64,000 nucleotides of DNA, taken from Oscillospiraceae bacterium (GTDB taxonomy: Bacteria; Bacillota; Clostridia; Oscillospirales; Ruminococcaceae). Position 1 is the stretch's first letter. Each line of letters begins with the position of its first letter. The translations under genes and the position numbers were made by a program. This document shows positions 17,174 through 52,313 of this stretch, piece after piece. Location of the stretch: positions 9,989 to 73,988 of the forward strand of contig CAAGJO010000003.1 in NCBI GenBank assembly GCA_900770285.1, given 5' to 3'. A model generated the notes under the pieces. That model was not told the DNA's origin. It saw nothing but the letters and a program-made list of their open reading frames with translations, and made no database searches.

Positions 17174-19030
17174 ATGTGTGGATTTGTAGGATTTACTAAT
17201 AAAATAAATGACGCATCAATAGTCATTGAAAAGATGATGGACAGAATAAAACATCGTGGACCTGACTCTGACGGAAAATATGTTGATGAACAGGTTGCAA
17301 TGGGATTCAGACGTCTTTCAATTATAGACCTTTCCGACAAGGGAAGCCAGCCAATATTCAATGAGGATAAATCAATAGTTATTACTTTCAATGGCGAGAT
17401 ATATAATTATCAGGATTTGAGAAAAGAACTGCTTGAACTGGGTCATAGCTTTTATACACAAACAGATACCGAAGTCTTGGTGCATGGCTATGAACAGTGG
17501 GGAAAAGAGATCCTCTCAAAACTCAGAGGAATGTTTGCTTTTGTGATTTATGACAAAAAGAGCGGAGAAATTTTCGGCGCCAGAGATTTCTTTGGCATTA
17601 AACCGCTTTATTATGCAAAAATGAGCGAAACATTAATGTGGGGCTCTGAAATAAAGAGTTTTCTTGATCACCCTGATTTCAAAAAGGAACTTAATACAGC
17701 AGCTTTGGAATCATATCTGTCATTTCAGTATTCAGTTACCAATGAAACATTCTTCAAAAATGTTTATAAGCTTCCGCCGGCTCATTACTTTACATACAAA
17801 GACGGAAAGATGACAGTTGAACGTTATTGGGACGTTGAATTTACCCCTGATGACGGGCCTTCTCTTGAACAATGGGTAGATAAAATTACCGACACATTCA
17901 AAAATTCAGTAGAGGCTCATAAAATTGCCGATGTTGAAGTAGGTTCATTCCTTTCCAGCGGTGTAGATTCCAGCTATGTCGCAGCAGTGGCAAATGTTGA
18001 TAAAACATTTACTGTTGGTTTCGGTGAGGATGAAAAATATAATGAAATAGGTTATGCCAAGGAATTTTCCAAGTATATTCATAAGGAAAACATTTCAAAG
18101 GTGGTAACTCCTGAGGACTACTGGGGTAATTTTGCAAAAATCCAGTATCACATGGATGAACCTTTGGCTGACCCTGCGGCAGTTGCACTTTTCTTTGTTT
18201 GCCAGATTGCGTCCGAAAAGGTTAAGGTAGTGCTTAGCGGCGAGGGAGCTGATGAAATTTTCGGAGGGTATAATATTTATCATAATCCTGCGGATATGGC
18301 GTCATATAATAAAATTCCTAAGCCTATCAGAAAAGCTGTTGGTGCTGTAGCACAGCATTTGCCCCATAAGCATGGAATAAACTTCCTTATCAGAGGCTCA
18401 CAGGATCTACAGGAAAGATTTATAGGCAATGCATATATCTTTACTGAAAAGGAACGTAAGAACATATTGAAAATTAAAACAGATGCACTAAGTCCTATGG
18501 CTATTACCAAACCTTTTTATGATAAGTGTAAGAACAACGATGAAGTTACACAAATGCAGTATCTTGATTTGCACCTTTGGATGGCAGGGGACATATTGCT
18601 TAAAGCGGATAAAATGAGTATGGCGCATTCTCTTGAACTTCGTGTTCCGTTCCTGGATAAAGAAGTTATGGCTTTGGCAGAGAATATTCCTACAAAGGAT
18701 CGTGTAACTCCTGAAAATACCAAGTATGCAATGAGACTGGCAGCCCTCAGAGCCTGCCCTCCTCAGACAGCTAATAAGAAAAAGCTTGGTTTTCCTGTAC
18801 CTATTCGTGTATGGCTTAAAGAAGATAAGTATTACAATCTTGTTAAAGATAAGTTTACATCATCAGCATCAGCACAGTTCTTCAATACAGAGGAGCTTGT
18901 AAAGCTGCTTGACGAACACCGTGCAGGACATTATGATTATTCGAGAAAGATTTGGACAGTATTCACATTTCTCGTTTGGTATGATGTGTATTTTGGTGAA
19001 AATCCAAAAGCTGAATCTATTTTAAAATAA
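17174..19030 (+). CDS. asnB: Asparagine synthase (glutamine-hydrolysing) family amidotransferase
   Basis: N-terminal MCG nucleophile, HRGPD, RRLSIID, FNGEIYN, LSSGVDSS, SGEGADE, ELRVPFLD. Confidence 0.93.
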   Translation: MCGFVGFTNKINDASIVIEKMMDRIKHRGPDSDGKYVDEQVAMGFRRLSIIDLSDKGSQPIFNEDKSIVITFNGEIYNYQDLRKELLELGHSFYTQTDTEVLVHGYEQWGKEILSKLRGMFAFVIYDKKSGEIFGARDFFGIKPLYYAKMSETLMWGSEIKSFLDHPDFKKELNTAALESYLSFQYSVTNETFFKNVYKLPPAHYFTYKDGKMTVERYWDVEFTPDDGPSLEQWVDKITDTFKNSVEAHKIADVEVGSFLSSGVDSSYVAAVANVDKTFTVGFGEDEKYNEIGYAKEFSKYIHKENISKVVTPEDYWGNFAKIQYHMDEPLADPAAVALFFVCQIASEKVKVVLSGEGADEIFGGYNIYHNPADMASYNKIPKPIRKAVGAVAQHLPHKHGINFLIRGSQDLQERFIGNAYIFTEKERKNILKIKTDALSPMAITKPFYDKCKNNDEVTQMQYLDLHLWMAGDILLKADKMSMAHSLELRVPFLDKEVMALAENIPTKDRVTPENTKYAMRLAALRACPPQTANKKKLGFPVPIRVWLKEDKYYNLVKDKFTSSASAQFFNTEELVKLLDEHRAGHYDYSRKIWTVFTFLVWYDVYFGENPKAESILK

Positions 19031-42996: not shown

Positions 42997-43216
42997 ATAA
43001 AAGTCCCGATTTTACGGGCTTTTCCTTAATTTTTGTAGCTTTGTCTAAAACGCTGAAATTTTATTTGTATAAATTTGTATTTAATAACTTGATATATTGC
43101 CTAAATAATACTTGAAAATATGAATATATTTGTCAGCATTATTTTAATGTCTTTCCTATATTCACAACGCAGAAAATACCAATAAATGAATATAGTTAGT
43201 TTTTTAAAAATAATGC

Positions 43217-43245
43217 TTGACTTTTATAGTGAAAAGTACTATAAT
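43217..43245 (+). promoter_or_regulatory. SigA-type promoter of secDF
   Basis: TTGACT-17 bp-TATAAT. Confidence 0.75.
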
Positions 43246-43305
43246 AAACAAGTAAATATTCGGCAAATTATTAATATTTGTACTATAATTTTAGGAGGAA
43301 GTTTT

Positions 43306-45660
43306 GTGCGTCGTGCAAAGAAACCTGTTTTCTTTATAGTAGTTGCCTTTATTGCCGTGTTCGCATATCTGACTTTTGCAGGTATACATTCACAGTACGG
43401 TGATGTAAAGAAAACATATGTTAAAAGTGTAGATGAGATCAGATGGGGTATTGATATTCAGGGTGGTGTTAATGCAACATTTGAACCGGCTGACGGCTAT
43501 AAGGCTACAGCTAAAGAAATGGAGGCTGCTAAGTCTGTAATTGAGCAGCGTCTTGTAAACCTTAATATCACAGACAGTGAAGTTTATGTTGATACTTCTA
43601 CAAATAAAGTAATGGTATCATTCCCATGGCAGGCAGGGGAGCAGAGTTTTGACCCTGAAGAAGCCGTTGCAGAATTGGGCGAAACTGCTGTTCTTACATT
43701 CCGTAAGGGTACAGAAGAAACCGGAGAGGAAGTTATTACCGGTACTAATGTAAAAAATGCAGAGGCTGTATTGCAGAATAATGATAACGGTCAGTCGGAA
43801 TATGTAGTATCTCTTGAACTTGACAGCGACGGAACTAAGTCATTCGGAGATGCAACAACAGAATTGGCAGCAAGTCAGGGACAGATTTCTATCTGGATGG
43901 ATGAGAAGCAGATTTCAGCACCTGTAGTAAACGAAGCTATCACAGGCGGAAAGTGTACGATTTCAGGAAGTTCATCTCATCCGTTTACTCATGATTCAGC
44001 TAAGGCTTTGGCTGACAAGATCATGGCAGGTTCATTGCCATTCAAGCTTGTTACAACAAGCAATAATATTATTTCACCAACATTTGGTACCGGCGCAAGA
44101 AATGCAATGGTAATTGCAGGTATTATTGCATTTATCCTCATTGCCATTTATATGATTGCGATTTACAGACTTCCGGGTTGTGTAGCTGCAATTTCTCTGT
44201 TCGGACAGGTTGTGGGTACAATTGCATGTGTATCAGGATTTTTCGGAAATATTGACAGCTTTACGCTTACCATACCGGGTATAGCGGGTATTATACTTGC
44301 CATTGGTATGGGCGTTGATGCCAACGTTATTACTGCAGAACGTATTAAGGAAGAACTTAATAACGGTAAAACTTTAACAGGAGCTATTGAGCTTGGATAT
44401 AAGAGAGCCTGGTCTGCTGTATTCGACAGTAATATTACCGTTGTATTTGTTGCTGTAATTCTTATGGGTGCATTTGGCCCGACTGACAGCATTTTCGGAA
44501 CTCTTCTTAAACCAATTTTCTTTGCATTTGGTGTTTCAACAGCAGGTACAATTTATTCATTGGGTTATACATTGCTTGTTGGTATTATACTCAACTTTGT
44601 ATTCGGTGTATTCTGCTCAAGACTTATGCTTTCATCACTTTCAAAGTTCAATTGTTTCAAAAAACGTTCACTTTACGGTGCTAAGGAAGAACATAAGGAA
44701 CATAAAACACTTAAGGTATTTGAACATCGTAAGATATTCTATTCAATCTCCTGCGGCTTGATTGCAGTAATTGCTGTTCTTACTTTAGTAATCGGCGTTA
44801 ACGTTGCTATCGAATTCAAAGGCGGTACAATTATTACATATACTTATGACGGCACAGTAGACACAAATGATATTGCAAAGACTGTTAAGGATACAATTGA
44901 CGAAAGTGCAATCGTTACAACGGGAACAAACTTCTCAAGTGATGATACTACAATTAAACTTCAGTTTGCATCTAAAGAAGGTATCAGTGAGCAAAAGCAG
45001 AATAAGCTTACAACAGAACTTCAGAAAACGTATTCTAAGAATAATATAGAAATTCTTGAATCAAATGACGTTGCAGCATCAAATGGTGTAAACTTCTTCT
45101 TTAAGTGTTTGGTAGCATGTGTCTTTGCGGCTATTGTAACAATTATTTATATCGGATTCAGATTTAAGAAGATCGGCGGTATATCAGCCGGCTGCTTCTC
45201 GGTAGTTGCGTTGCTCCATGACTTGATTATGGTTTACGGTTGCTTTGTAATCTTCAGATTTGATATTAACGCTAACTTCATGGCCGTATTGCTCACAATT
45301 CTCGGTTACTCAATTAACGCTACAATTATTATTTATGATAGAATCAGAGAAAACCGCAGAATACAGGGTAGAAAGATGGAACTTTCCGAACTGGTCAACC
45401 ATTCAATCACACAGACTGTGGGACGTACAATTCATACAAATGTAACAACTATTGCTGCTATGATAGTAGTTTGCATAGTATGTTCAATCTACGGAATTTC
45501 TTCAATAATAAGCTTTGCATTCCCATTGATTGTTGGTATGCTCGCAGGTGTATATTCTTCAAACTGCCTTGCTCCTACATTGTGGGTAATGTGGCAGAAA
45601 CATAAGGAATCCAAAAAGAAACAAGCTGTTAAGGGTTCTAAAAAAACTGTTAAGGCATAA
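43306..45660 (+). CDS. secDF: Protein translocase subunit SecDF (fused)
   Basis: GIDIQGG, GSLP, LTIPGIAGIILAIGMGVDANV..ERIKEE, IEFKGGT, GYSIN.TI..YDRIRE; GTG start after AGGAGG. Confidence 0.93.
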   Translation: MRRAKKPVFFIVVAFIAVFAYLTFAGIHSQYGDVKKTYVKSVDEIRWGIDIQGGVNATFEPADGYKATAKEMEAAKSVIEQRLVNLNITDSEVYVDTSTNKVMVSFPWQAGEQSFDPEEAVAELGETAVLTFRKGTEETGEEVITGTNVKNAEAVLQNNDNGQSEYVVSLELDSDGTKSFGDATTELAASQGQISIWMDEKQISAPVVNEAITGGKCTISGSSSHPFTHDSAKALADKIMAGSLPFKLVTTSNNIISPTFGTGARNAMVIAGIIAFILIAIYMIAIYRLPGCVAAISLFGQVVGTIACVSGFFGNIDSFTLTIPGIAGIILAIGMGVDANVITAERIKEELNNGKTLTGAIELGYKRAWSAVFDSNITVVFVAVILMGAFGPTDSIFGTLLKPIFFAFGVSTAGTIYSLGYTLLVGIILNFVFGVFCSRLMLSSLSKFNCFKKRSLYGAKEEHKEHKTLKVFEHRKIFYSISCGLIAVIAVLTLVIGVNVAIEFKGGTIITYTYDGTVDTNDIAKTVKDTIDESAIVTTGTNFSSDDTTIKLQFASKEGISEQKQNKLTTELQKTYSKNNIEILESNDVAASNGVNFFFKCLVACVFAAIVTIIYIGFRFKKIGGISAGCFSVVALLHDLIMVYGCFVIFRFDINANFMAVLLTILGYSINATIIIYDRIRENRRIQGRKMELSELVNHSITQTVGRTIHTNVTTIAAMIVVCIVCSIYGISSIISFAFPLIVGMLAGVYSSNCLAPTLWVMWQKHKESKKKQAVKGSKKTVKA

Positions 45661-46197: not shown

Positions 46198-47469
46198 ATG
46201 AAAAAACCATTTATCACGAAGGAACAAGCTGATGAAACTATTAAGATCTATTCTACTCCTTTTCATATTTATGACGAAAAGGGTATTAGAGAAAATGCTC
46301 GAAGAATAAAGGATGCATTCTCTTGGAATAAGGGATTTAAAGAATATTTTGCTGTGAAAGCCACTCCAAATCCATTTATTTTAAAAATTTTGAAAGAAGA
46401 AGGCTGTGGTGTAGACTGTTCTTCACTTACAGAACTTATGATGAGTGAGGCATGCGGTTTTACTGGTGAGGATATTATGTTCTCTTCCAATGATACTCCT
46501 GCCGAAGACTTTAAGCTGGCTAAAGAACTTAACGCATATATAAACCTTGATGATATAACACATATTGAATTTTTGGAGAAAACCTGTGGTTTACCCGAAA
46601 CTGTCTGCTGCAGATATAATCCTGGCGGACATTTTTCTGTAGAAACAACAATTATGGATAACCCGGGGGAAGCTAAATATGGTTTTACTCATGAGCAGTT
46701 CTTTGAGGGATTTAAGATCCTCAAGGAAAAAGGCGTGAAAGAATTTGGTATTCATTCTTTCCTGGCGTCGAATACTGTTTCAAATAATTATTATCCAAAG
46801 CTTGCAAGAATTCTGTTCCAGCTTGCTGTTGACTTAAAAGAGCAGCTTGGAGTTCATATTAAGTTTATTAACCTTTCAGGCGGAGTTGGCGTGCCTTATG
46901 AACCGGATAAAGAGCCAAATGATATTTACGCCATTGCTGAGGGAGTTCATAAAGCATATGATGAAATTCTTGTTCCTGCAGGAATGGGTGATGTTGCAAT
47001 TTTCACTGAAATGGGAAGATACATGCTCGCACCATATGGTCATCTTGTAACAAAATGTATTCATCAGAAACATATTCATAAGGAATATATTGGTGTTGAC
47101 GCAAATGCCTGCAATCTTATGCGTCCTGCAATGTATGGAGCATATCATCATATTACAGTTTTGGGTAAGGAGAACGAACCTTGTGACCATAAGTATGATG
47201 TAACAGGCAATCTTTGTGAAAATAATGATAAGTTTGCTGTTGACAGAATGCTGCCAAAGATTGATATCGGTGATATTCTTGTTATTCACGATACTGGTGC
47301 TCACGGCTTCTCTATGGGCTATAACTATAACGGCAGACTTCGTTCAGCAGAAATTCTTTTGAAAGAGGATGGCTCAACACAGCTTATCAGACGTGCTGAA
47401 ACTCCGTCGGATTATTTCAGAACATTTGATTTCTGCGGTATACTTGACAAATATATTGATAAAGATTAG
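46198..47469 (+). CDS. lysA: Diaminopimelate decarboxylase
   Basis: TPFHIYDE, FAVKA (PLP lysine), NLSGGVG, EMGRY, RPAMYGAYH, GNLCENND, MGYNYN. Confidence 0.93.
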   Translation: MKKPFITKEQADETIKIYSTPFHIYDEKGIRENARRIKDAFSWNKGFKEYFAVKATPNPFILKILKEEGCGVDCSSLTELMMSEACGFTGEDIMFSSNDTPAEDFKLAKELNAYINLDDITHIEFLEKTCGLPETVCCRYNPGGHFSVETTIMDNPGEAKYGFTHEQFFEGFKILKEKGVKEFGIHSFLASNTVSNNYYPKLARILFQLAVDLKEQLGVHIKFINLSGGVGVPYEPDKEPNDIYAIAEGVHKAYDEILVPAGMGDVAIFTEMGRYMLAPYGHLVTKCIHQKHIHKEYIGVDANACNLMRPAMYGAYHHITVLGKENEPCDHKYDVTGNLCENNDKFAVDRMLPKIDIGDILVIHDTGAHGFSMGYNYNGRLRSAEILLKEDGSTQLIRRAETPSDYFRTFDFCGILDKYIDKD

Positions 47470-47550: not shown

Positions 47551-47579
47551 TTGCAATAGCTTCGGAAATATAGTATAAT
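47551..47579 (+). promoter_or_regulatory. SigA-type promoter of the gat operon
   Basis: TTGCAA-17 bp-TATAAT about 50 nt before gatC. Confidence 0.7.
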
Positions 47580-47628: not shown

Positions 47629-47907
47629 ATGGATTTGGATATGGTAAAATACCTTGCTGATTTGGGCAAGCTAGAGTTTACTCCTGAAGAACTTGCAAAA
47701 AAAGCAGAAGAAATGACTGATATTATTAACCTTATGGACACAGTTAAGGAAATTGATATCACTTATGACGCACTTAAGGATAATCATGATGTTTATATTA
47801 ATGATTTGCGAGAAGATGATCCAAAAGAATCACTTCCTACCGAAAAGATTTTGCAGAATGCAGTTAATACAAATAATTGCTTTGTAGTACCAAAGGTAGT
47901 TGAATAA
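47629..47907 (+). CDS. gatC: Asp/Glu-tRNA amidotransferase subunit C
   Basis: V.YLA.L.KL, LRED, ILQNA, FVVPKVVE; position before gatA. Confidence 0.9.
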   Translation: MDLDMVKYLADLGKLEFTPEELAKKAEEMTDIINLMDTVKEIDITYDALKDNHDVYINDLREDDPKESLPTEKILQNAVNTNNCFVVPKVVE

Positions 47908-47928: not shown

Positions 47929-49377
47929 ATGGACGTAGCTTCAATGAAAATACGGGATATGCGTAAAGCACTTGATGAAAAGCAGATTTCTGCAAAAGAG
48001 CTTGCAGGCGTGTATCTTGAAAATATAAAAAAGAATGATGAAAAGCTTGAGGCTTTTATTACTGTTACAGAAGAAAAGGCATATAATCAAGCAGAAGAGG
48101 CTCAGAAAGTTATTGACAGCGGTAATTCCAAAGCTTTAACAGGTATACCTCTTGCAATTAAGGATAATATCTGCACAGAAGGAATCAAAACCACTTGTGC
48201 ATCTAAAATGCTTGAGAATTTTGTGCCGCCATATAATGCAACAGTAATGGAAAAGCTTGATGCTGAAAATATTGTTATGCTTGGTAAAACATCAATGGAT
48301 GAATTTGCTATGGGTGGTTCAACACAGACTTCTGCTTTTGCAAAGACAAAAAACCCTTATAATACAGAGTGCGTACCGGGAGGTTCTTCAGGTGGTTCGG
48401 CAGCAGCTGTTTCAGGCGGACTAGCTCCGGCGGCTCTTGGTTCTGATACAGGCGGATCTATCAGACAGCCGTCTGCTTTCTGCGGTGTAACAGGGTTAAA
48501 ACCAACATACAGCCGAGTTTCACGTTATGGCTTGGTCGCTTTTGCATCATCTTTGGATCAGATTGGTCCAATTGCTCATGACAGTCATGACTGTGGTATT
48601 ATTTTAAATGAGATATGTGGTTTTGATCCTCATGATGGTACAAGCTCACATGAAAAAGTACCTGATTTTACAGCAAAAATCGGTCAGCCGTTAAAGGGAA
48701 TGAAAATTGCTTTGCCTGCGGAGTTTTATGCAGAGGGAATTGATGAGGATATTAAAAAGGCAGTATTAAAGGCTGCTGACGAGTATAAGACAATGGGTGC
48801 AGAGCTTGTAGAATGTAAAATGCCTTCACTTAAGTATGCAGTACCAGCTTATTATCTCCTTGCATGTGCTGAGGCTACTTCAAACCTTGCAAGATATGAC
48901 GGAATTAAGTATGGCCATAGGGCAGAGCATGCTGACAGCTATGGTGAACTGGTTGTAAAATCGCGTTCGGAAGGCTTTGGAGATGAAGTTAAGAGAAGAA
49001 TTCTCCTTGGTAACTATGCTCTTTCCAGCGGTTACTACGACGCTTATTACCGTAAAGCCCTAGCTTTAAGACAGCTAATAAGAAAAGAATATAACGAGAT
49101 TTTTGATAAATGTGATGTTGTATTGACTCCAACAACACCAACAGTCGCATATCGTCCGAATGATATGAACGATCCGGTTAAAATGTACCAGGCAGATATT
49201 TGTACCGTTACTGTTAATATCGCAGGACTTCCTGCCGTTTCCACGCCATGCGGTTATGATAAGAACGGCATGCCTATTGGTATGTCAATTATCGGTAAAA
49301 AGTTTGATGAAGCAACTATAATTCAGGTTGCAGACGCTTATGAACAGGGCTTTAAACCTGTTTCACCAAAGCTTTAA
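47929..49377 (+). CDS. gatA: Asp/Glu-tRNA amidotransferase subunit A
   Basis: IKDNI, MDEFAMG, PGGSSGGSAAA, GSDTGGSIRQP, GFGDEVKRRILLG. Confidence 0.96.
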   Translation: MDVASMKIRDMRKALDEKQISAKELAGVYLENIKKNDEKLEAFITVTEEKAYNQAEEAQKVIDSGNSKALTGIPLAIKDNICTEGIKTTCASKMLENFVPPYNATVMEKLDAENIVMLGKTSMDEFAMGGSTQTSAFAKTKNPYNTECVPGGSSGGSAAAVSGGLAPAALGSDTGGSIRQPSAFCGVTGLKPTYSRVSRYGLVAFASSLDQIGPIAHDSHDCGIILNEICGFDPHDGTSSHEKVPDFTAKIGQPLKGMKIALPAEFYAEGIDEDIKKAVLKAADEYKTMGAELVECKMPSLKYAVPAYYLLACAEATSNLARYDGIKYGHRAEHADSYGELVVKSRSEGFGDEVKRRILLGNYALSSGYYDAYYRKALALRQLIRKEYNEIFDKCDVVLTPTTPTVAYRPNDMNDPVKMYQADICTVTVNIAGLPAVSTPCGYDKNGMPIGMSIIGKKFDEATIIQVADAYEQGFKPVSPKL

Positions 49378-49391
49378 GGAGGTAAAGACAA

Positions 49392-52262
49392 ATGGAAAAA
49401 TATAAAACCGTCATAGGTCTTGAAATCCATGCAGAGCTTTTGACTCATTCCAAGGTTTTTTGTGCCTGTAACGCTGAATTTGGCGGAGATCAGAATACAC
49501 GATGCTGTCCTACCTGTTCGGGTATGCCGGGAACACTTCCTGTAATTAATCAGACGGCTATTGAGTATGCCGTTAAAGCAGGATTTGCACTTAATTGTGA
49601 TATAAACAAATTCTCTGCTTTTGACAGAAAAAACTATTTTTATCCTGATTTGCCTAAGGCATATCAGATTTCACAGCTTTATTATCCAATCGTTGGGCCG
49701 GGATATGTACCAATAGAGGTCAATGGTCAAAAGAAAAAAATCAGAATTAATCATATTCATCTTGAAGAAGATGCAGGAAAGCTCATTCACGATGATTTTA
49801 ACGGAATTTCCATGGCGGATTACAACAGATGCGGTATTCCGCTTATCGAAATAGTTACTGAGCCTGATATGAATTCTGCAGAAGAGGCTATGGCTCTTGT
49901 TGAACAGATCTCACTTCTTTTACAGTATGCAGGAGTATGTGACTGTAAAATGGAACAGGGTTCACTCCGTTGTGATGTTAATATTTCTTTGATGAAACCT
50001 GATGCAAAGGAATTTGGTACTCGAGCAGAAATCAAGAACATTAACTCAATAAAATCTGTGGGACGTGCTATAAAATACGAAGAAAGACGTCAGGCACTGC
50101 TTTTGGATGCCGGCAAAAAGGTTGTTCAGGAAACAAGACGTTATAATGCAAACAGAGATAAGACAACTTCAATGCGTTCAAAGGAAAATGCACAGGATTA
50201 TAGATATTTCCCGGAACCTGATATTTTAGAGGTTAATCTGACCGATGAACAGCTTGATGAAATCAAGGCAAAGCTTCCTGAACTTCCGAATAAGAGAATT
50301 AAAAGATATACTGAAGAATATAAGCTTTCAAAGAAAGATGCTGAGACTTTGGTTAATTCAAAGATTATTTCAGACTTCTTTAATGAGGCGGTTGCAGTAT
50401 ATAACAGTCCAAAAACTGTTGCATCATTTATTCTTACCGAGTTTTTAAGAAGAGTTAACCTGGGAGAAATTGACCCGAATAATATCAGCTTTACCCCTGC
50501 TGATTTTGCTGAATTGGTTGAAATGGCTGATACTGAAAAGGTCTCAAAGAATGATGCAAAGGCAATATTCAGAGAAATGGTTGAAAAGGGCGGTACTCCT
50601 GAGGAAATTGCAAAGAAAAACGGTATGCTCATTGTTGTTGATACCGAAAAGGTAAACAGTACTATTGATGAGATTCTTGCACAGAATTCTGCACAGACAG
50701 AGCAGTATAAAAACGGCGAAACAAAAGTATTTGGATTTCTTATGGGACAGTGTACAAAAGCATTGAAAGGTGCTGCTACACCTAAAATTGTTAAAGAGGC
50801 TTTAGAGACAAAGCTTAAGGCAATGTCGGCACAGACTGAAAATACCAATACCCAAAAGATTGAAGAAAAGGCTCAGGATACGACATCAAAGCTTTCTGAG
50901 TATAAAAATGCAGATAAATATGTGCCAGAGTCAGAGGGAGAATTTGTCTTTGTTGGTACAGATAAATTGAAGAAAGAATTTAATATTTCTGATGCACTTA
51001 ACAATATTGGCAAAACAATTTCCTTCGAGGGATGTGTTCACAGAGTTAAAAAGTTCGGCAATATCTCATTCGTTCTTATCAGAACTGCAGAAAATGTAAT
51101 TCAGACTGTTTATAGCGCAGAACAATGTAAGGACAGCATAGAGGGTCTTAAAGAAGGCTATTATGTATATGTTGAGGGTACTGTAAAGGAAAATGCCAAG
51201 GAGTTTTATGGCATAGAAGTTGAGCTTTCATCTATTAAGCTTGTTTCAAAATCTGCGGCAGAATATCCTTTGAAAATTTCACAGGGAAAGCTGAACTGTA
51301 CAATTGAGGCAAACCTTGATAACCGTTCTGTAGCACTCAGAAATCCATATCAGAAGGCAATTTTCAAGATTCAGGAAGGTATTGTTCATGGTATGCATGA
51401 ATTTATGAGAGCTAATAACTTTACAGAAATTCATACTCCAAAGATAGTTGCACAAGGTGCTGAGGGCGGTGCAAATATATTCAGACTTGATTATTTCCAG
51501 AAATCCGCATTTCTAAACCAGTCACCGCAGTTTTATAAACAGGCAGCTGTTGCTTTCTTTGACAGAGTATATGAAATTGCTCCTGTTTACCGTGCCGAAA
51601 AGCATGCAACATCTCGTCATATTAACGAATATATAGGTCTTGACTTTGAAATGGCTTATATTGACAGCATGTATGACGTAATGGCTATGGAAACATCTAT
51701 GCTTAAGCATATTATGGAATATCTGAAGAAAAACTATGCCAACGAGATAAAACTTCTTGACGCTGATATTCCGGAGATTACGGAGATTCCTTCAATTAAA
51801 TTCTGTGATGCAGTTACATTGCTCAGAGGCGGTGAGGGTGCAGGTAAAAAATTTGATCTTGATCCTGAGGATGAAGTAAATCTTGGAAAGTATGCAAAAG
51901 AGAAATATAACAGCGATTTCATTTTTGTTACACATTTCCCGTCATCAAAACCGCCATTCTATGCTATGAATTCAAGGGAAGATCCAAGAGAAGCATATAA
52001 GTTTGACCTGCTTTTCAGAGGACTTGAGATCACATCAGGCGGTCAGCGTATCCATGATTATGATGAACAGGTTGAAAAGATGAAAAAACAAGGTCTTGAT
52101 CCTGAAGATTTCAAGAGCTATCTTGAATCACATAAATATGGTTTGCCGCCTCACGGCGGTCTGGGAATAGGTCTTGAAAGACTTACAATGAAACTTCTTA
52201 ATTTAAACAATATCAGAGAAGCCTCAATGTTCCCAAGAGATATTAACAGGCTTATTCCATAA
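49392..52262 (+). CDS. gatB-aspS: Fusion of amidotransferase subunit GatB and archaeal-type aspartyl-tRNA synthetase
   Basis: N-half: IGLEIH, RKNYFYPDLPK, HLEEDAGK, DYRYFPEPD, GFLMGQ. C-half: OB fold, EIHTPKI, YRAEKH.TSRH, FDLLFRGLEITSGGQRIH, PPHGGLGIGLERL. Single open frame of 956 aa. Confidence 0.93.
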   Translation: MEKYKTVIGLEIHAELLTHSKVFCACNAEFGGDQNTRCCPTCSGMPGTLPVINQTAIEYAVKAGFALNCDINKFSAFDRKNYFYPDLPKAYQISQLYYPIVGPGYVPIEVNGQKKKIRINHIHLEEDAGKLIHDDFNGISMADYNRCGIPLIEIVTEPDMNSAEEAMALVEQISLLLQYAGVCDCKMEQGSLRCDVNISLMKPDAKEFGTRAEIKNINSIKSVGRAIKYEERRQALLLDAGKKVVQETRRYNANRDKTTSMRSKENAQDYRYFPEPDILEVNLTDEQLDEIKAKLPELPNKRIKRYTEEYKLSKKDAETLVNSKIISDFFNEAVAVYNSPKTVASFILTEFLRRVNLGEIDPNNISFTPADFAELVEMADTEKVSKNDAKAIFREMVEKGGTPEEIAKKNGMLIVVDTEKVNSTIDEILAQNSAQTEQYKNGETKVFGFLMGQCTKALKGAATPKIVKEALETKLKAMSAQTENTNTQKIEEKAQDTTSKLSEYKNADKYVPESEGEFVFVGTDKLKKEFNISDALNNIGKTISFEGCVHRVKKFGNISFVLIRTAENVIQTVYSAEQCKDSIEGLKEGYYVYVEGTVKENAKEFYGIEVELSSIKLVSKSAAEYPLKISQGKLNCTIEANLDNRSVALRNPYQKAIFKIQEGIVHGMHEFMRANNFTEIHTPKIVAQGAEGGANIFRLDYFQKSAFLNQSPQFYKQAAVAFFDRVYEIAPVYRAEKHATSRHINEYIGLDFEMAYIDSMYDVMAMETSMLKHIMEYLKKNYANEIKLLDADIPEITEIPSIKFCDAVTLLRGGEGAGKKFDLDPEDEVNLGKYAKEKYNSDFIFVTHFPSSKPPFYAMNSREDPREAYKFDLLFRGLEITSGGQRIHDYDEQVEKMKKQGLDPEDFKSYLESHKYGLPPHGGLGIGLERLTMKLLNLNNIREASMFPRDINRLIP

Positions 52263-52273
52263 AACAAAAATAT

Positions 52274-52313
52274 AAGCGGCTAAAGATGAGAACTTTCTTT
52301 AGCCGCCTTTTTT
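52274..52313. terminator. Terminator between convergent gatB-aspS and copA
   Basis: GCGGCTAAAGA-loop-TCTTTAGCCGC then CTTTTTT. Confidence 0.82.

Follow-up and report, generated by a model that had tools for sequence, protein, structure and literature searches.

A natural fusion of GatB to an archaeal-type aspartyl-tRNA synthetase in Ruminococcaceae, a likely covalently tethered Asn-transamidosome

Why should the amidotransferase subunit GatB be joined to an aspartyl-tRNA synthetase (AspRS) in one polypeptide, and does such a chain form a ready-made complex for Asn-tRNA(Asn) synthesis? This question is raised by a 64,000-nucleotide stretch of DNA from an Oscillospiraceae bacterium (contig CAAGJO010000003.1), referred to here as the window, in which the following features are arranged in a row:

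47551..47579, + strand: sigma-70-type promoter-like site, TTGCAA-17-TATAAT (10/12 match), 50 bases 5' of gatC
47629..47907, + strand: gatC, 92 aa (TIGR00135, 51.5 bits against a cut-off of 47.1)
47929..49377, + strand: gatA, 482 aa, glutaminase motifs intact (TIGR00132, 605 bits against 481)
49392..52262, + strand: gatB-aspS fusion, 956 aa, ATG start (ORF list)
49392..50822, + strand: GatB half, residues 1-477, catalytic domain and Yqey tail (Pfam, NCBIfam)
50823..50891, + strand: flexible tether, residues ~478-500, acidic/polar (alignment and predicted disorder)
50892..50981, + strand: residues 501-530, predicted to form an ordered cap over the anticodon-binding domain (conservation and pLDDT)
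50982..52262, + strand: archaeal-type AspRS half, residues 531-956, OB and class II catalytic domains (Pfam, NCBIfam)
52276..52313, + strand: terminator-like hairpin, 11-bp stem and 9-base loop followed by a T run (read from the sequence)

The first-pass annotation had described one uninterrupted frame with a complete GatB and AspRS behind gatC and gatA, and the ORF list, in which the frame 49392..52262 has no internal stop, agrees on this with Pfam and NCBIfam. Translation of the fusion starts 14 bases past the gatA stop, and an AAGGAGG site can be read upstream. In the GatB half, GatB_N covers residues 6-288 and GatB_Yqey residues 328-475, and the curated full-length GatB model TIGR00133 matches residues 1-475 with 535.6 bits against 314.8. 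Residues E11, H13, C24, C26, C39, C42, E125, E153 and E213 are invariant in 92/92 aligned homologues, and H13, E125, E153, E11 and the four cysteines are the metal-binding and catalytic residues of GatB. The AspRS half contains an OB-fold (544-617) and a tRNA-synt_2 domain (639-950). Both halves of the fusion are complete and their active-site columns are invariant. The partners of GatB, GatC and a GatA with intact glutaminase motifs, are both encoded upstream; KDN, GGSSGGS and SDTGGSIR, the glutaminase motifs of GatA, are all matched in 67/69 full-length operon GatAs, the two misses being split loci.

The promoter-like pattern is weak by itself, with 24 sites found against 15.9 +/- 3.1 in shuffles; a similar pattern lies 5' of gatC in 62/70 related loci. 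T-box control, which reportedly appears in the title of Saad et al. 2012 for the second set of Clostridium acetobutylicum, was looked for in this operon and not found: the window has no Rfam match, a crude T-box motif occurs upstream of gatC in 0/70 related loci, and a leader would have no room because the promoter-like site is only 50 bases before gatC. The hairpin behind the fusion is missing from a terminator scan with a loop limit of 8.

The fusion is real and conserved. It is found at 71/80 related genome loci, including the complete chromosome of an R. callidus isolate, so that relatives do not all have separate genes, and its presence in independent assemblies led us to reject an assembly or frameshift artefact. 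In each of two homologue searches, one of them seeded with a distant unfused AspRS, 120 of the 120 matches listed carry both GatB_Yqey and tRNA-synt_2, and the first-pass remark that such fusions are annotated in Ruminococcus-type genomes is correct. The stored fusion proteins are 954-959 aa long in 157/171 cases; in databases such proteins mostly bear the name of GatB alone. No description of a GatB-AspRS fusion was found in the literature covered, which lay mostly outside subscription journals; supplements could list one. The fusion is probably a covalent variant of a known transamidosome system.

The junction between both halves comprises about 50 residues and had initially been regarded as a polar linker, the sequence quoted for it lying at residues 479-500. 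This description holds for residues ~480-500, but residues 501-530 are instead conserved and predicted to be ordered. The tether itself is hypervariable, with a majority-residue conservation of 17-35% per column, and its pLDDT falls below 50 at residues 481-495 in the structure prediction. The spacing between L475 and Y510 is nevertheless kept at 33-35 residues in 87/92 rows. The tether is followed by a T-x-Y-x-N-x3-Y-x-P motif at residues 501-512, in which Y510 and P512 occur in 100% of the non-gap rows of 71 fused loci. This motif is absent from 9/9 split AspRSs, whose start is near residue 519; the sequence after residue 512 is an N-terminal extension common to split AspRSs. Residues 501-530 reach a pLDDT of 81-88 even in a model folded without GatB, and in the predicted structure the fusion-specific motif packs against the anticodon domain. 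As the fused junction is ~29 codons longer than its split-operon counterpart and has gained a new conserved motif, the fusion is not a bare read-through product. A tether held at nearly constant length while its sequence is saturated, together with the gained ordered motif, suggests selection on geometry.

The same two observations argue against a rival explanation, according to which loss of a stop codon in the operon would only have fixed 1:1 co-expression and local concentration, with the halves acting independently or across the dimer and without hand-over in cis. This explanation can draw on the 9/80 loci at which the same operon is kept split by gaps of just ~15-37 bases, and on a tether that is predicted to be disordered, with no predicted interface between the halves; the full-length model gives them no fixed orientation (pTM 0.46). 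It is also favoured by four genomes, described below, in which the fused GatB has to work in trans with another synthetase. We consider it unlikely, though still the most plausible of the rivals. Because split operons persist, five of the nine in genomes in which no AsnRS was found, the Asn route does not depend on a tether.

A polyprotein, from which tether cleavage or internal re-initiation would release separate GatB and AspRS, would find in-frame start codons in the junction (ATG at residue 478, GTG at 511 and TTG at 526), and disordered tethers are prone to proteolysis. However, by eye none of these codons has a clear Shine-Dalgarno sequence in the 20 bases upstream, in line with the initial reading of the linker as free of stops and of internal ribosome-binding sites with ATG; M478 is not conserved among fused loci, and the variable part of the tether contains no conserved cleavage motif. 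The related suggestion that the join is an assembly error is excluded by a frame common to 71 independent assemblies, and this group of explanations is hardly credible.

The linker motif common to the fused loci hints at a single origin of the fusion. Single-clade tests, run on quick trees without a mixture model and with rows drawn from sets of 95 and 100, gave p-AU values of 0.038 (42 rows) and 0.21 (31 rows) for the AspRS half and rejected one clade for the GatB half (p-AU 3e-5, 31 rows).

The AspRS half had been described as short and devoid of the bacterial GAD insertion, which is indeed absent. It passes two models of archaeal-type aspartate--tRNA(Asn) ligases, PRK05159 (532 bits, cut-off 353) and TIGR00458 (400 against 368.4), and remains below the cut-offs for bacterial aspS (178 against 374) and asnS (240 against 343). 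Its best solved match is 1n9w/3kfu (E 5.5e-104), and every structure retrieved by a fold search was a GatB or an AspRS/AsnRS. The label of a non-discriminating enzyme stands in part. It is consistent with the Asn-ligase models and with H550 in the first strand of the anticodon domain, a residue shared with the Thermus thermophilus enzyme and replaced by Trp in the Thermococcus enzyme; the 71 fused rows have His (62) or Tyr (9) at this position. The L1-loop Pro typical of non-discriminating AspRSs is missing, however: F605 stands where T. thermophilus AspRS2 has this Pro. Among the 71 fused rows, position 605 is Phe in 23, Val in 18, Tyr in 13, Ile in 10, Pro in 3 and Lys in none; the Pro is present in 1/9 split rows, and the Thermococcus enzyme has Lys. 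Feng et al. in 2005 reportedly found that replacing the L1 Pro abolished tRNA(Asn) use in Deinococcus radiodurans AspRS2. A tether that compensates for the lost Pro is not a necessary link, as split relatives, some of them in AsnRS-less genomes, are Pro-less as well.

A census of asnS, glnS and a second aspS fits an Asn-tRNA route through the fusion. AsnRS is found in 1/41 fused genomes, GlnRS in 0/41 (0/50 overall), and a second, bacterial-type AspRS in 41/41. In a family sample, AsnRS is present in 0/7 fused genomes, two of which repeat members of the 41 and which, as kin, are not independent, against 93/120 overall; it occurs in 11/15 genomes with a stand-alone archaeal-type AspRS. The fusion as the only AspRS was rejected also for the present genome, where a 592-aa protein (C7) is a bacterial-type AspRS. 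Since this genome is 84% complete and a class II LysRS match is missing too, its own absences alone prove nothing. AsnB is present in 50/51 genomes and AsnA in 0/51, which excludes the fusion route as the sole source of asparagine; tRNA charging, not the amino acid, depends on it. The tRNA-Asn of this genome has U1-A72 and its tRNA-Asp G1-C72, a difference that constitutes the amidation identity rule (PMC9976931).

The second AspRS lacks the His of the Pseudomonas aeruginosa Asp/Asn enzyme in 28/28 fused genomes examined. Sixteen genomes of the family in which both AsnRS and an archaeal-type AspRS are missing served as controls. A second bacterial-type AspRS is present in 13 of them, carrying the His in 11/13 and adjoining gat genes in 7/13. 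As most control genomes carry a second AspRS, usually with the His, the fusion fills the slot taken elsewhere in the family by an Asn-charging cassette. In the remaining three, the only AspRS is bacterial and His-less, and AsnRS gives no match; they may use the His-less enzyme to charge tRNA(Asn), or may be incomplete assemblies. These three genomes lend some weight to the view that the fused AspRS discriminates against tRNA(Asn) or uses it poorly, with the housekeeping bacterial-type AspRS as the source of Asp-tRNA(Asn) and a different role, such as scaffolding, for the fusion. Among Firmicutes, the His-less AspRSs of B. subtilis and S. aureus charge tRNA(Asn), and the L1 Pro is missing in 68/71 fused rows. 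This view is nonetheless very improbable: H550 matches the non-discriminating T. thermophilus enzyme, the Thermococcus Lys is found at position 605 in 0/71 rows, the fusion passes both aspartate--tRNA(Asn) models, and Pro-less relatives from split operons are likewise found in genomes without AsnRS. In addition, GatB rejects Asp-tRNA(Asp), so that its fusion to an Asp-only enzyme would have no evident use.

Whether the fused GatCAB is dedicated to the Asn route, as had been suggested at first pass, depends on the other amidotransferases of the cell. A second, stand-alone GatB is present in 37/41 fused genomes and would allow a division of labour. In the present genome, the two sets share 45% (GatB), 52% (GatA) and 27% (GatC) identity, and the second set is ligA-linked. 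A strict split, with Asp-tRNA(Asn) left entirely to the fused GatCAB and Glu-tRNA(Gln) entirely to the ligA-linked one, would parallel archaeal GatCAB and GatDE and would suit these two diverged sets. In the high-completeness family sample (96-99%), however, 4/7 fused genomes show no GatB other than the fused one and lack GlnRS: G154 (3.6 Mb, 2 contigs, 99%), G069, G153 and G134. Each has one GatA over the cut-off and one GluRS-family gene, and no gat genes follow ligA. With the fused GatB as the only one found and without GlnRS, the fused GatCAB must also amidate Glu-tRNA(Gln) there. Universal dedication to Asn is thus rejected, and the chances of a strict split are slimmer even than those of a discriminating AspRS.

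Taken together, GatB tethered to an archaeal-type AspRS is probably a pre-assembled, covalently tethered Asn-transamidosome. As gatC, gatA and the fusion lie in one run behind one promoter-like site, every AspRS chain of this type comes with a GatB. By analogy with the protein families, GatC and GatA would assemble on the GatB half, and dimerization of the AspRS halves would place two GatCAB arms on each AspRS dimer. The AspRS half would read the anticodon and load Asp onto tRNA(Asn); the tethered GatB would grip the same tRNA via its elbow and the U1-A72 pair, take over the acceptor end, phosphorylate and amidate it with ammonia from GatA, and release Asn-tRNA(Asn). A cell without AsnRS would gain fidelity if AspRS and GatCAB never part, because an archaeal-type AspRS without GAD fails to retain Asp-tRNA(Asn) in the absence of GatCAB, as stated for the T. 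thermophilus enzyme in PMC3367201. The separate bacterial-type AspRS would make most Asp-tRNA(Asp), and the second GatCAB, where present, would carry most of the Gln route. Proximity would bias the fused GatCAB to Asn without making it exclusive, since it is the only amidotransferase found in some genomes. A bolder version, possible but doubtful, is a single-chain transamidosome with the tether as a length-selected ruler. Its forced 1:1 ratio would make both sites of the AspRS dimer productive and the Thermus scaffold tRNA dispensable, GatB may also select tRNA(Asn) for the Pro-less synthetase, and in lineages that lost the second gatCAB the tethered GatCAB would swing away to work in trans with GluRS and tRNA(Gln).

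The closest known system is the T. thermophilus Asn-transamidosome (ND-AspRS2, GatCAB and tRNA-Asn; 3kfu, 1n9w), which has the same enzyme types, likewise without GAD, and the same predicted chemistry. That complex forms on tRNA without covalent links and includes a scaffold tRNA that is not a substrate (PMC3367201), whereas the fusion is a single chain. The chain counts of 3kfu imply four AspRS to two GatB, while the fusion forces 1:1, and the L1 Pro of AspRS2 is replaced in the fusion. The P. aeruginosa Asn-transamidosome (4wj3) combines GatCAB with an Asp/Asn AspRS in chain counts that fit 1:1 AspRS:GatB; unlike the fusion, it is non-covalent and its AspRS is bacterial-type with GAD. A covalent AspRS-amidotransferase link also exists naturally in the AspRS-GatC fusion (PRK12820 / NF009460), but this has a bacterial-type AspRS and a C-terminal GatC; with that model the present protein reaches 81 bits (cut-off 1379), and its gatC is separate. 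The family to which the present genome belongs also has AspRS-GatC fusions, in two genomes (L147, L148). An extra AspRS and an extra GatCAB in a Firmicute are described for C. acetobutylicum (Saad et al. 2012; PMC4206432). These are separate genes, in contrast to the gatC-gatA-gatB-aspS order with a fusion and no T-box motif in 70 loci seen here; an aspS-gatC-gatA-gatB operon of a type related to the C. acetobutylicum set occurs in one genome (G087). The Deinococcus GlnRS-Yqey chimera (NF011291; PMC1865053) joins a synthetase to the GatB-derived Yqey tRNA-binding domain. Unlike the fusion, it has only the Yqey tail and is a direct-route enzyme without amidotransferase activity.

What is known of whether and how transamidosomes channel mischarged tRNA comes only from loose complexes, which differ between species in stability and stoichiometry (PMC3367201). 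As closely related genomes carry the operon either fused or split, some with a second GatCAB and others without, the value of tethering becomes directly testable. Gut and rumen species that can be cultured, among them R. callidus (ATCC 27760) and Ruminococcus sp. Marseille-P6503 as carriers of the fusion, would provide a naturally stabilised complex for cryo-EM of the hand-over. F605 and its counterparts would challenge the L1-proline rule for tRNA(Asn) recognition. Finally, database naming after GatB alone hides what, judged from the sequences, is likely the sole Asn-tRNA route in these genomes.

The GatB-AspRS fusion is encoded by an uninterrupted frame downstream of gatC and gatA, as the first-pass annotation had described it, and both halves are complete.

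Features of the fused operon
47629-47907: gatC, upstream of the fusion
47929-49377: gatA, between gatC and the fusion
49392-52262, forward strand: GatB-AspRS fusion, a 956-codon frame with no stop inside
Residues 1-477: GatB half, full length, above curated cut-offs
Residues 531-956: archaeal-type AspRS half, full length, above curated cut-offs

The archaeal-type assignment of the synthetase held in the curated model scan, in which the bacterial aspS and asnS models stayed below their cut-offs on the fusion. For the first half, the closest solved structures are GatB of A. aeolicus and of T. maritima, and for the second half T. thermophilus AspRS2; a fold search with the predicted model retrieved GatB and AspRS/AsnRS chains only. 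A promoter-like site lies 50 bases ahead of gatC, and a hairpin plus T run is found 3' of the fusion stop codon. Immediately 5' of gatC is a lysA-like diaminopimelate decarboxylase gene (46198-47469), the slot of which is held by a 420-429-aa ORF in many of the closest loci. An 824-aa ORF (43186-45660) resembles, judged by eye, a fused SecDF, which is ordinary in Firmicutes.

The fusion is real and represents a conserved protein family. A junction-centred search returned 175 proteins, and a long-protein search that started from a distant AspRS outside the fused group gave 1034 matches; the GatB_Yqey plus tRNA-synt_2 architecture was present in all 120 matches listed for each. The length is 954-959 aa in 157 of 171 stored proteins, mostly named GatB in the databases, with a double name in two JGI entries. 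From 244 confirmed stretches, 80 genome loci were retained; 71 of these encode the fusion, and nine contain separate genes (gatC-gatA-gatB-aspS). Carriers with a genus name belong to Ruminococcus (among them R. callidus ATCC 27760, with a complete chromosome), Porcipelethomonas and Hominimerdicola, in line with the earlier expectation of such fusions in Ruminococcus-type genomes. When the family was sampled evenly (120 genomes with a completeness of at least 95%), the fusion was present in 7/120 and is therefore confined to one part of the family.

Split GatBs end at ~476-479 and split AspRSs begin near residue 519 (fusion numbering), so that ~40 residues are new in the fusion; the junction is ~29 codons longer than the split intergenic gap would supply. 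The polar linker originally proposed holds for residues ~478-500, which have a high content of E, A, S, K, T and D and are variable (column conservation 17-35%), but not for residues 501-512, which form a conserved T-x-Y-x-N-x3-Y-x-P motif exclusive to fused forms and predicted to be ordered. L475 and Y510 are 33-35 residues apart in 87 of 92 alignment rows picked by similarity across the junction (overall range 32-38), and the lengths from the search seeded with the distant AspRS agree with this near-constant spacing. In the full-chain AlphaFold model (pTM 0.46), pLDDT is <50 at 481-495 and ~80 at 501-530. As residues 501-530 are predicted to be ordered even without GatB (pLDDT 81-88), the motif is predicted to cap the anticodon domain, leaving a predicted free tether of merely ~16-20 residues.

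The new motif is common to all 71 fused rows, which suggests one fusion event. For the AspRS half, a single clade of fused rows received p-AU 0.038 in a 42-row tree and 0.21 in a 31-row tree, an equivocal result. In the GatB-half tree, several split GatBs are nested among fused ones and one clade is rejected (p-AU 3e-5), a pattern that could stem from recombination inside the operon or from re-splitting. The only fused genome with AsnRS (G026, locus L044) is a possible recombinant: its GatB half is sister to a split GatB (L178) and its AspRS half groups with fused AspRSs.

In the genome under study, ligA is followed by a second gatCAB; a bacterial-type AspRS (592 aa), one GluRS and AsnB are also encoded. 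Neither AsnRS nor GlnRS was matched in this 84% complete assembly, but these absences are weak because a class II LysRS match is likewise missing. The AsnB (618 aa, 17174-19030) is encoded 28 kb upstream within the window, although no AsnRS was found to put free asparagine into translation. The proposed genome check for asnS, glnS and a second aspS was extended to 41 fused genomes, representing 41 of the 71 fused loci and picked for longer contigs: AsnRS is present in one, GlnRS in none, and bacterial-type AspRS in all. AsnB occurs in 41/41, AsnA in 0/41 and a second GatB in 37/41, partial matches counted. AsnRS is found in 4/9 split genomes. In the family sample it is present in 93/120 genomes overall, in 0/7 fused genomes and in 11/15 with a stand-alone archaeal-type AspRS; two of these seven are also among the 41, and related genomes are not independent. 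G060 (locus L141, 98% complete) has a housekeeping AspRS like that of the R. callidus group without the fused operon or an AsnRS match; the operon was either lost or unassembled.

The second GatB in 37/41 genomes would allow the suggested dedication of the fused GatCAB to Asn, but four of the seven family-sample carriers (G154, G069, G153 and G134) contain the fused GatB only, according to family and protein searches. They have one GatA above cut-off, one GluRS-family gene, no GlnRS that could be found, and no gat genes in their ligA regions, where the R. callidus control has them; the G154 assembly comprises 3.6 Mb in 2 contigs (99%). Unless genes are unassembled, the tethered GatCAB must therefore also make Gln-tRNA(Gln) with free GluRS in these genomes, and Asn dedication is not strict. 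The only GluRS-family gene of G134, where no other GatB accompanies the fusion, encodes a divergent 558-aa GluRS (L187:1366-3042; TIGR00464 304 bits vs ~520 for the enzyme of the genome under study).

The literature search found no description of a GatB-AspRS fusion, nor is it mentioned in the portions of PMC7373986, PMC4206432, PMC9976931, PMC9437257, PMC9499178, PMC8762117 and PMC3367201 consulted, and it is apparently uncharacterised; its chemistry is already known, its architecture is new. Beside the gene structure, conservation and co-occurrence observed here, we infer its substrate range and a mechanism in which the AspRS halves would dimerise and Asp-tRNA(Asn) would be handed from AspRS to GatB in cis. 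PMC3367201 reports that cohesion differs among transamidosomes, that the Thermus archaeal-type enzyme employs a scaffold tRNA and depends on GatCAB to retain Asp-tRNA(Asn), and that proteins can take up amino acids from mischarged tRNA. A GAD-less synthetase, absent AsnRS and lack of retention without GatCAB would thus provide a reason for the tie to GatB. The 3kfu complex contains four AspRS per two GatB (PDB chain counts), a ratio that would leave idle GatBs in the fusion, predicting an architecture unlike 3kfu. The natural AspRS-GatC fusion, a curated NCBIfam family, links AspRS to GatC, whereas the protein described here links GatB to AspRS. G148 (L147:5078-7357; 759 aa) and G157 (L148:4490-6745; 751 aa) each encode a bacterial-type AspRS-GatC fusion that has Met instead of the ND-type His and precedes gatA-gatB; this is a second, independent covalent tether within the same family. 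The 3al0 structure reportedly contains an engineered GluRS-GatC link.

The fused AspRS shares His (H550) with the T. thermophilus enzyme and has Phe (F605) at the position of its L1 Pro, which is said to be needed for tRNA(Asn) use by D. radiodurans AspRS2. Pro occurs there in 3/71 fused and 1/9 split rows, Lys in none. The tRNAs of the genome under study, with U1-A72 in tRNA-Asn and both tRNA-Gln vs G1-C72 in tRNA-Asp, fit the identity rule for amidation given in PMC9976931. Among bacterial-type enzymes, RDHG of the P. aeruginosa Asp/Asn enzyme corresponds to RDLG in E. coli AspRS and T. thermophilus AspRS1; this His is found in 0/28 housekeeping AspRSs of fused genomes (24 loci, the gene of the genome under study and three more). 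In a control set of 16 family genomes lacking both AsnRS and archaeal-type AspRS, a second bacterial-type AspRS is present in 13, with His in 11, Met in one (an AspRS-GatC fusion) and one unscored; seven of the 13 adjoin gat genes. At L149-L161, a divergent second enzyme with RDHGG, often next to gatCAB, seems to stand in for AsnRS (11/16 genomes). On this evidence, AsnRS is replaced in the family by an extra AspRS-plus-GatCAB cassette, of which the fusion is one form. Three of the 16 contain a His-less enzyme alone, which counts against this reading.
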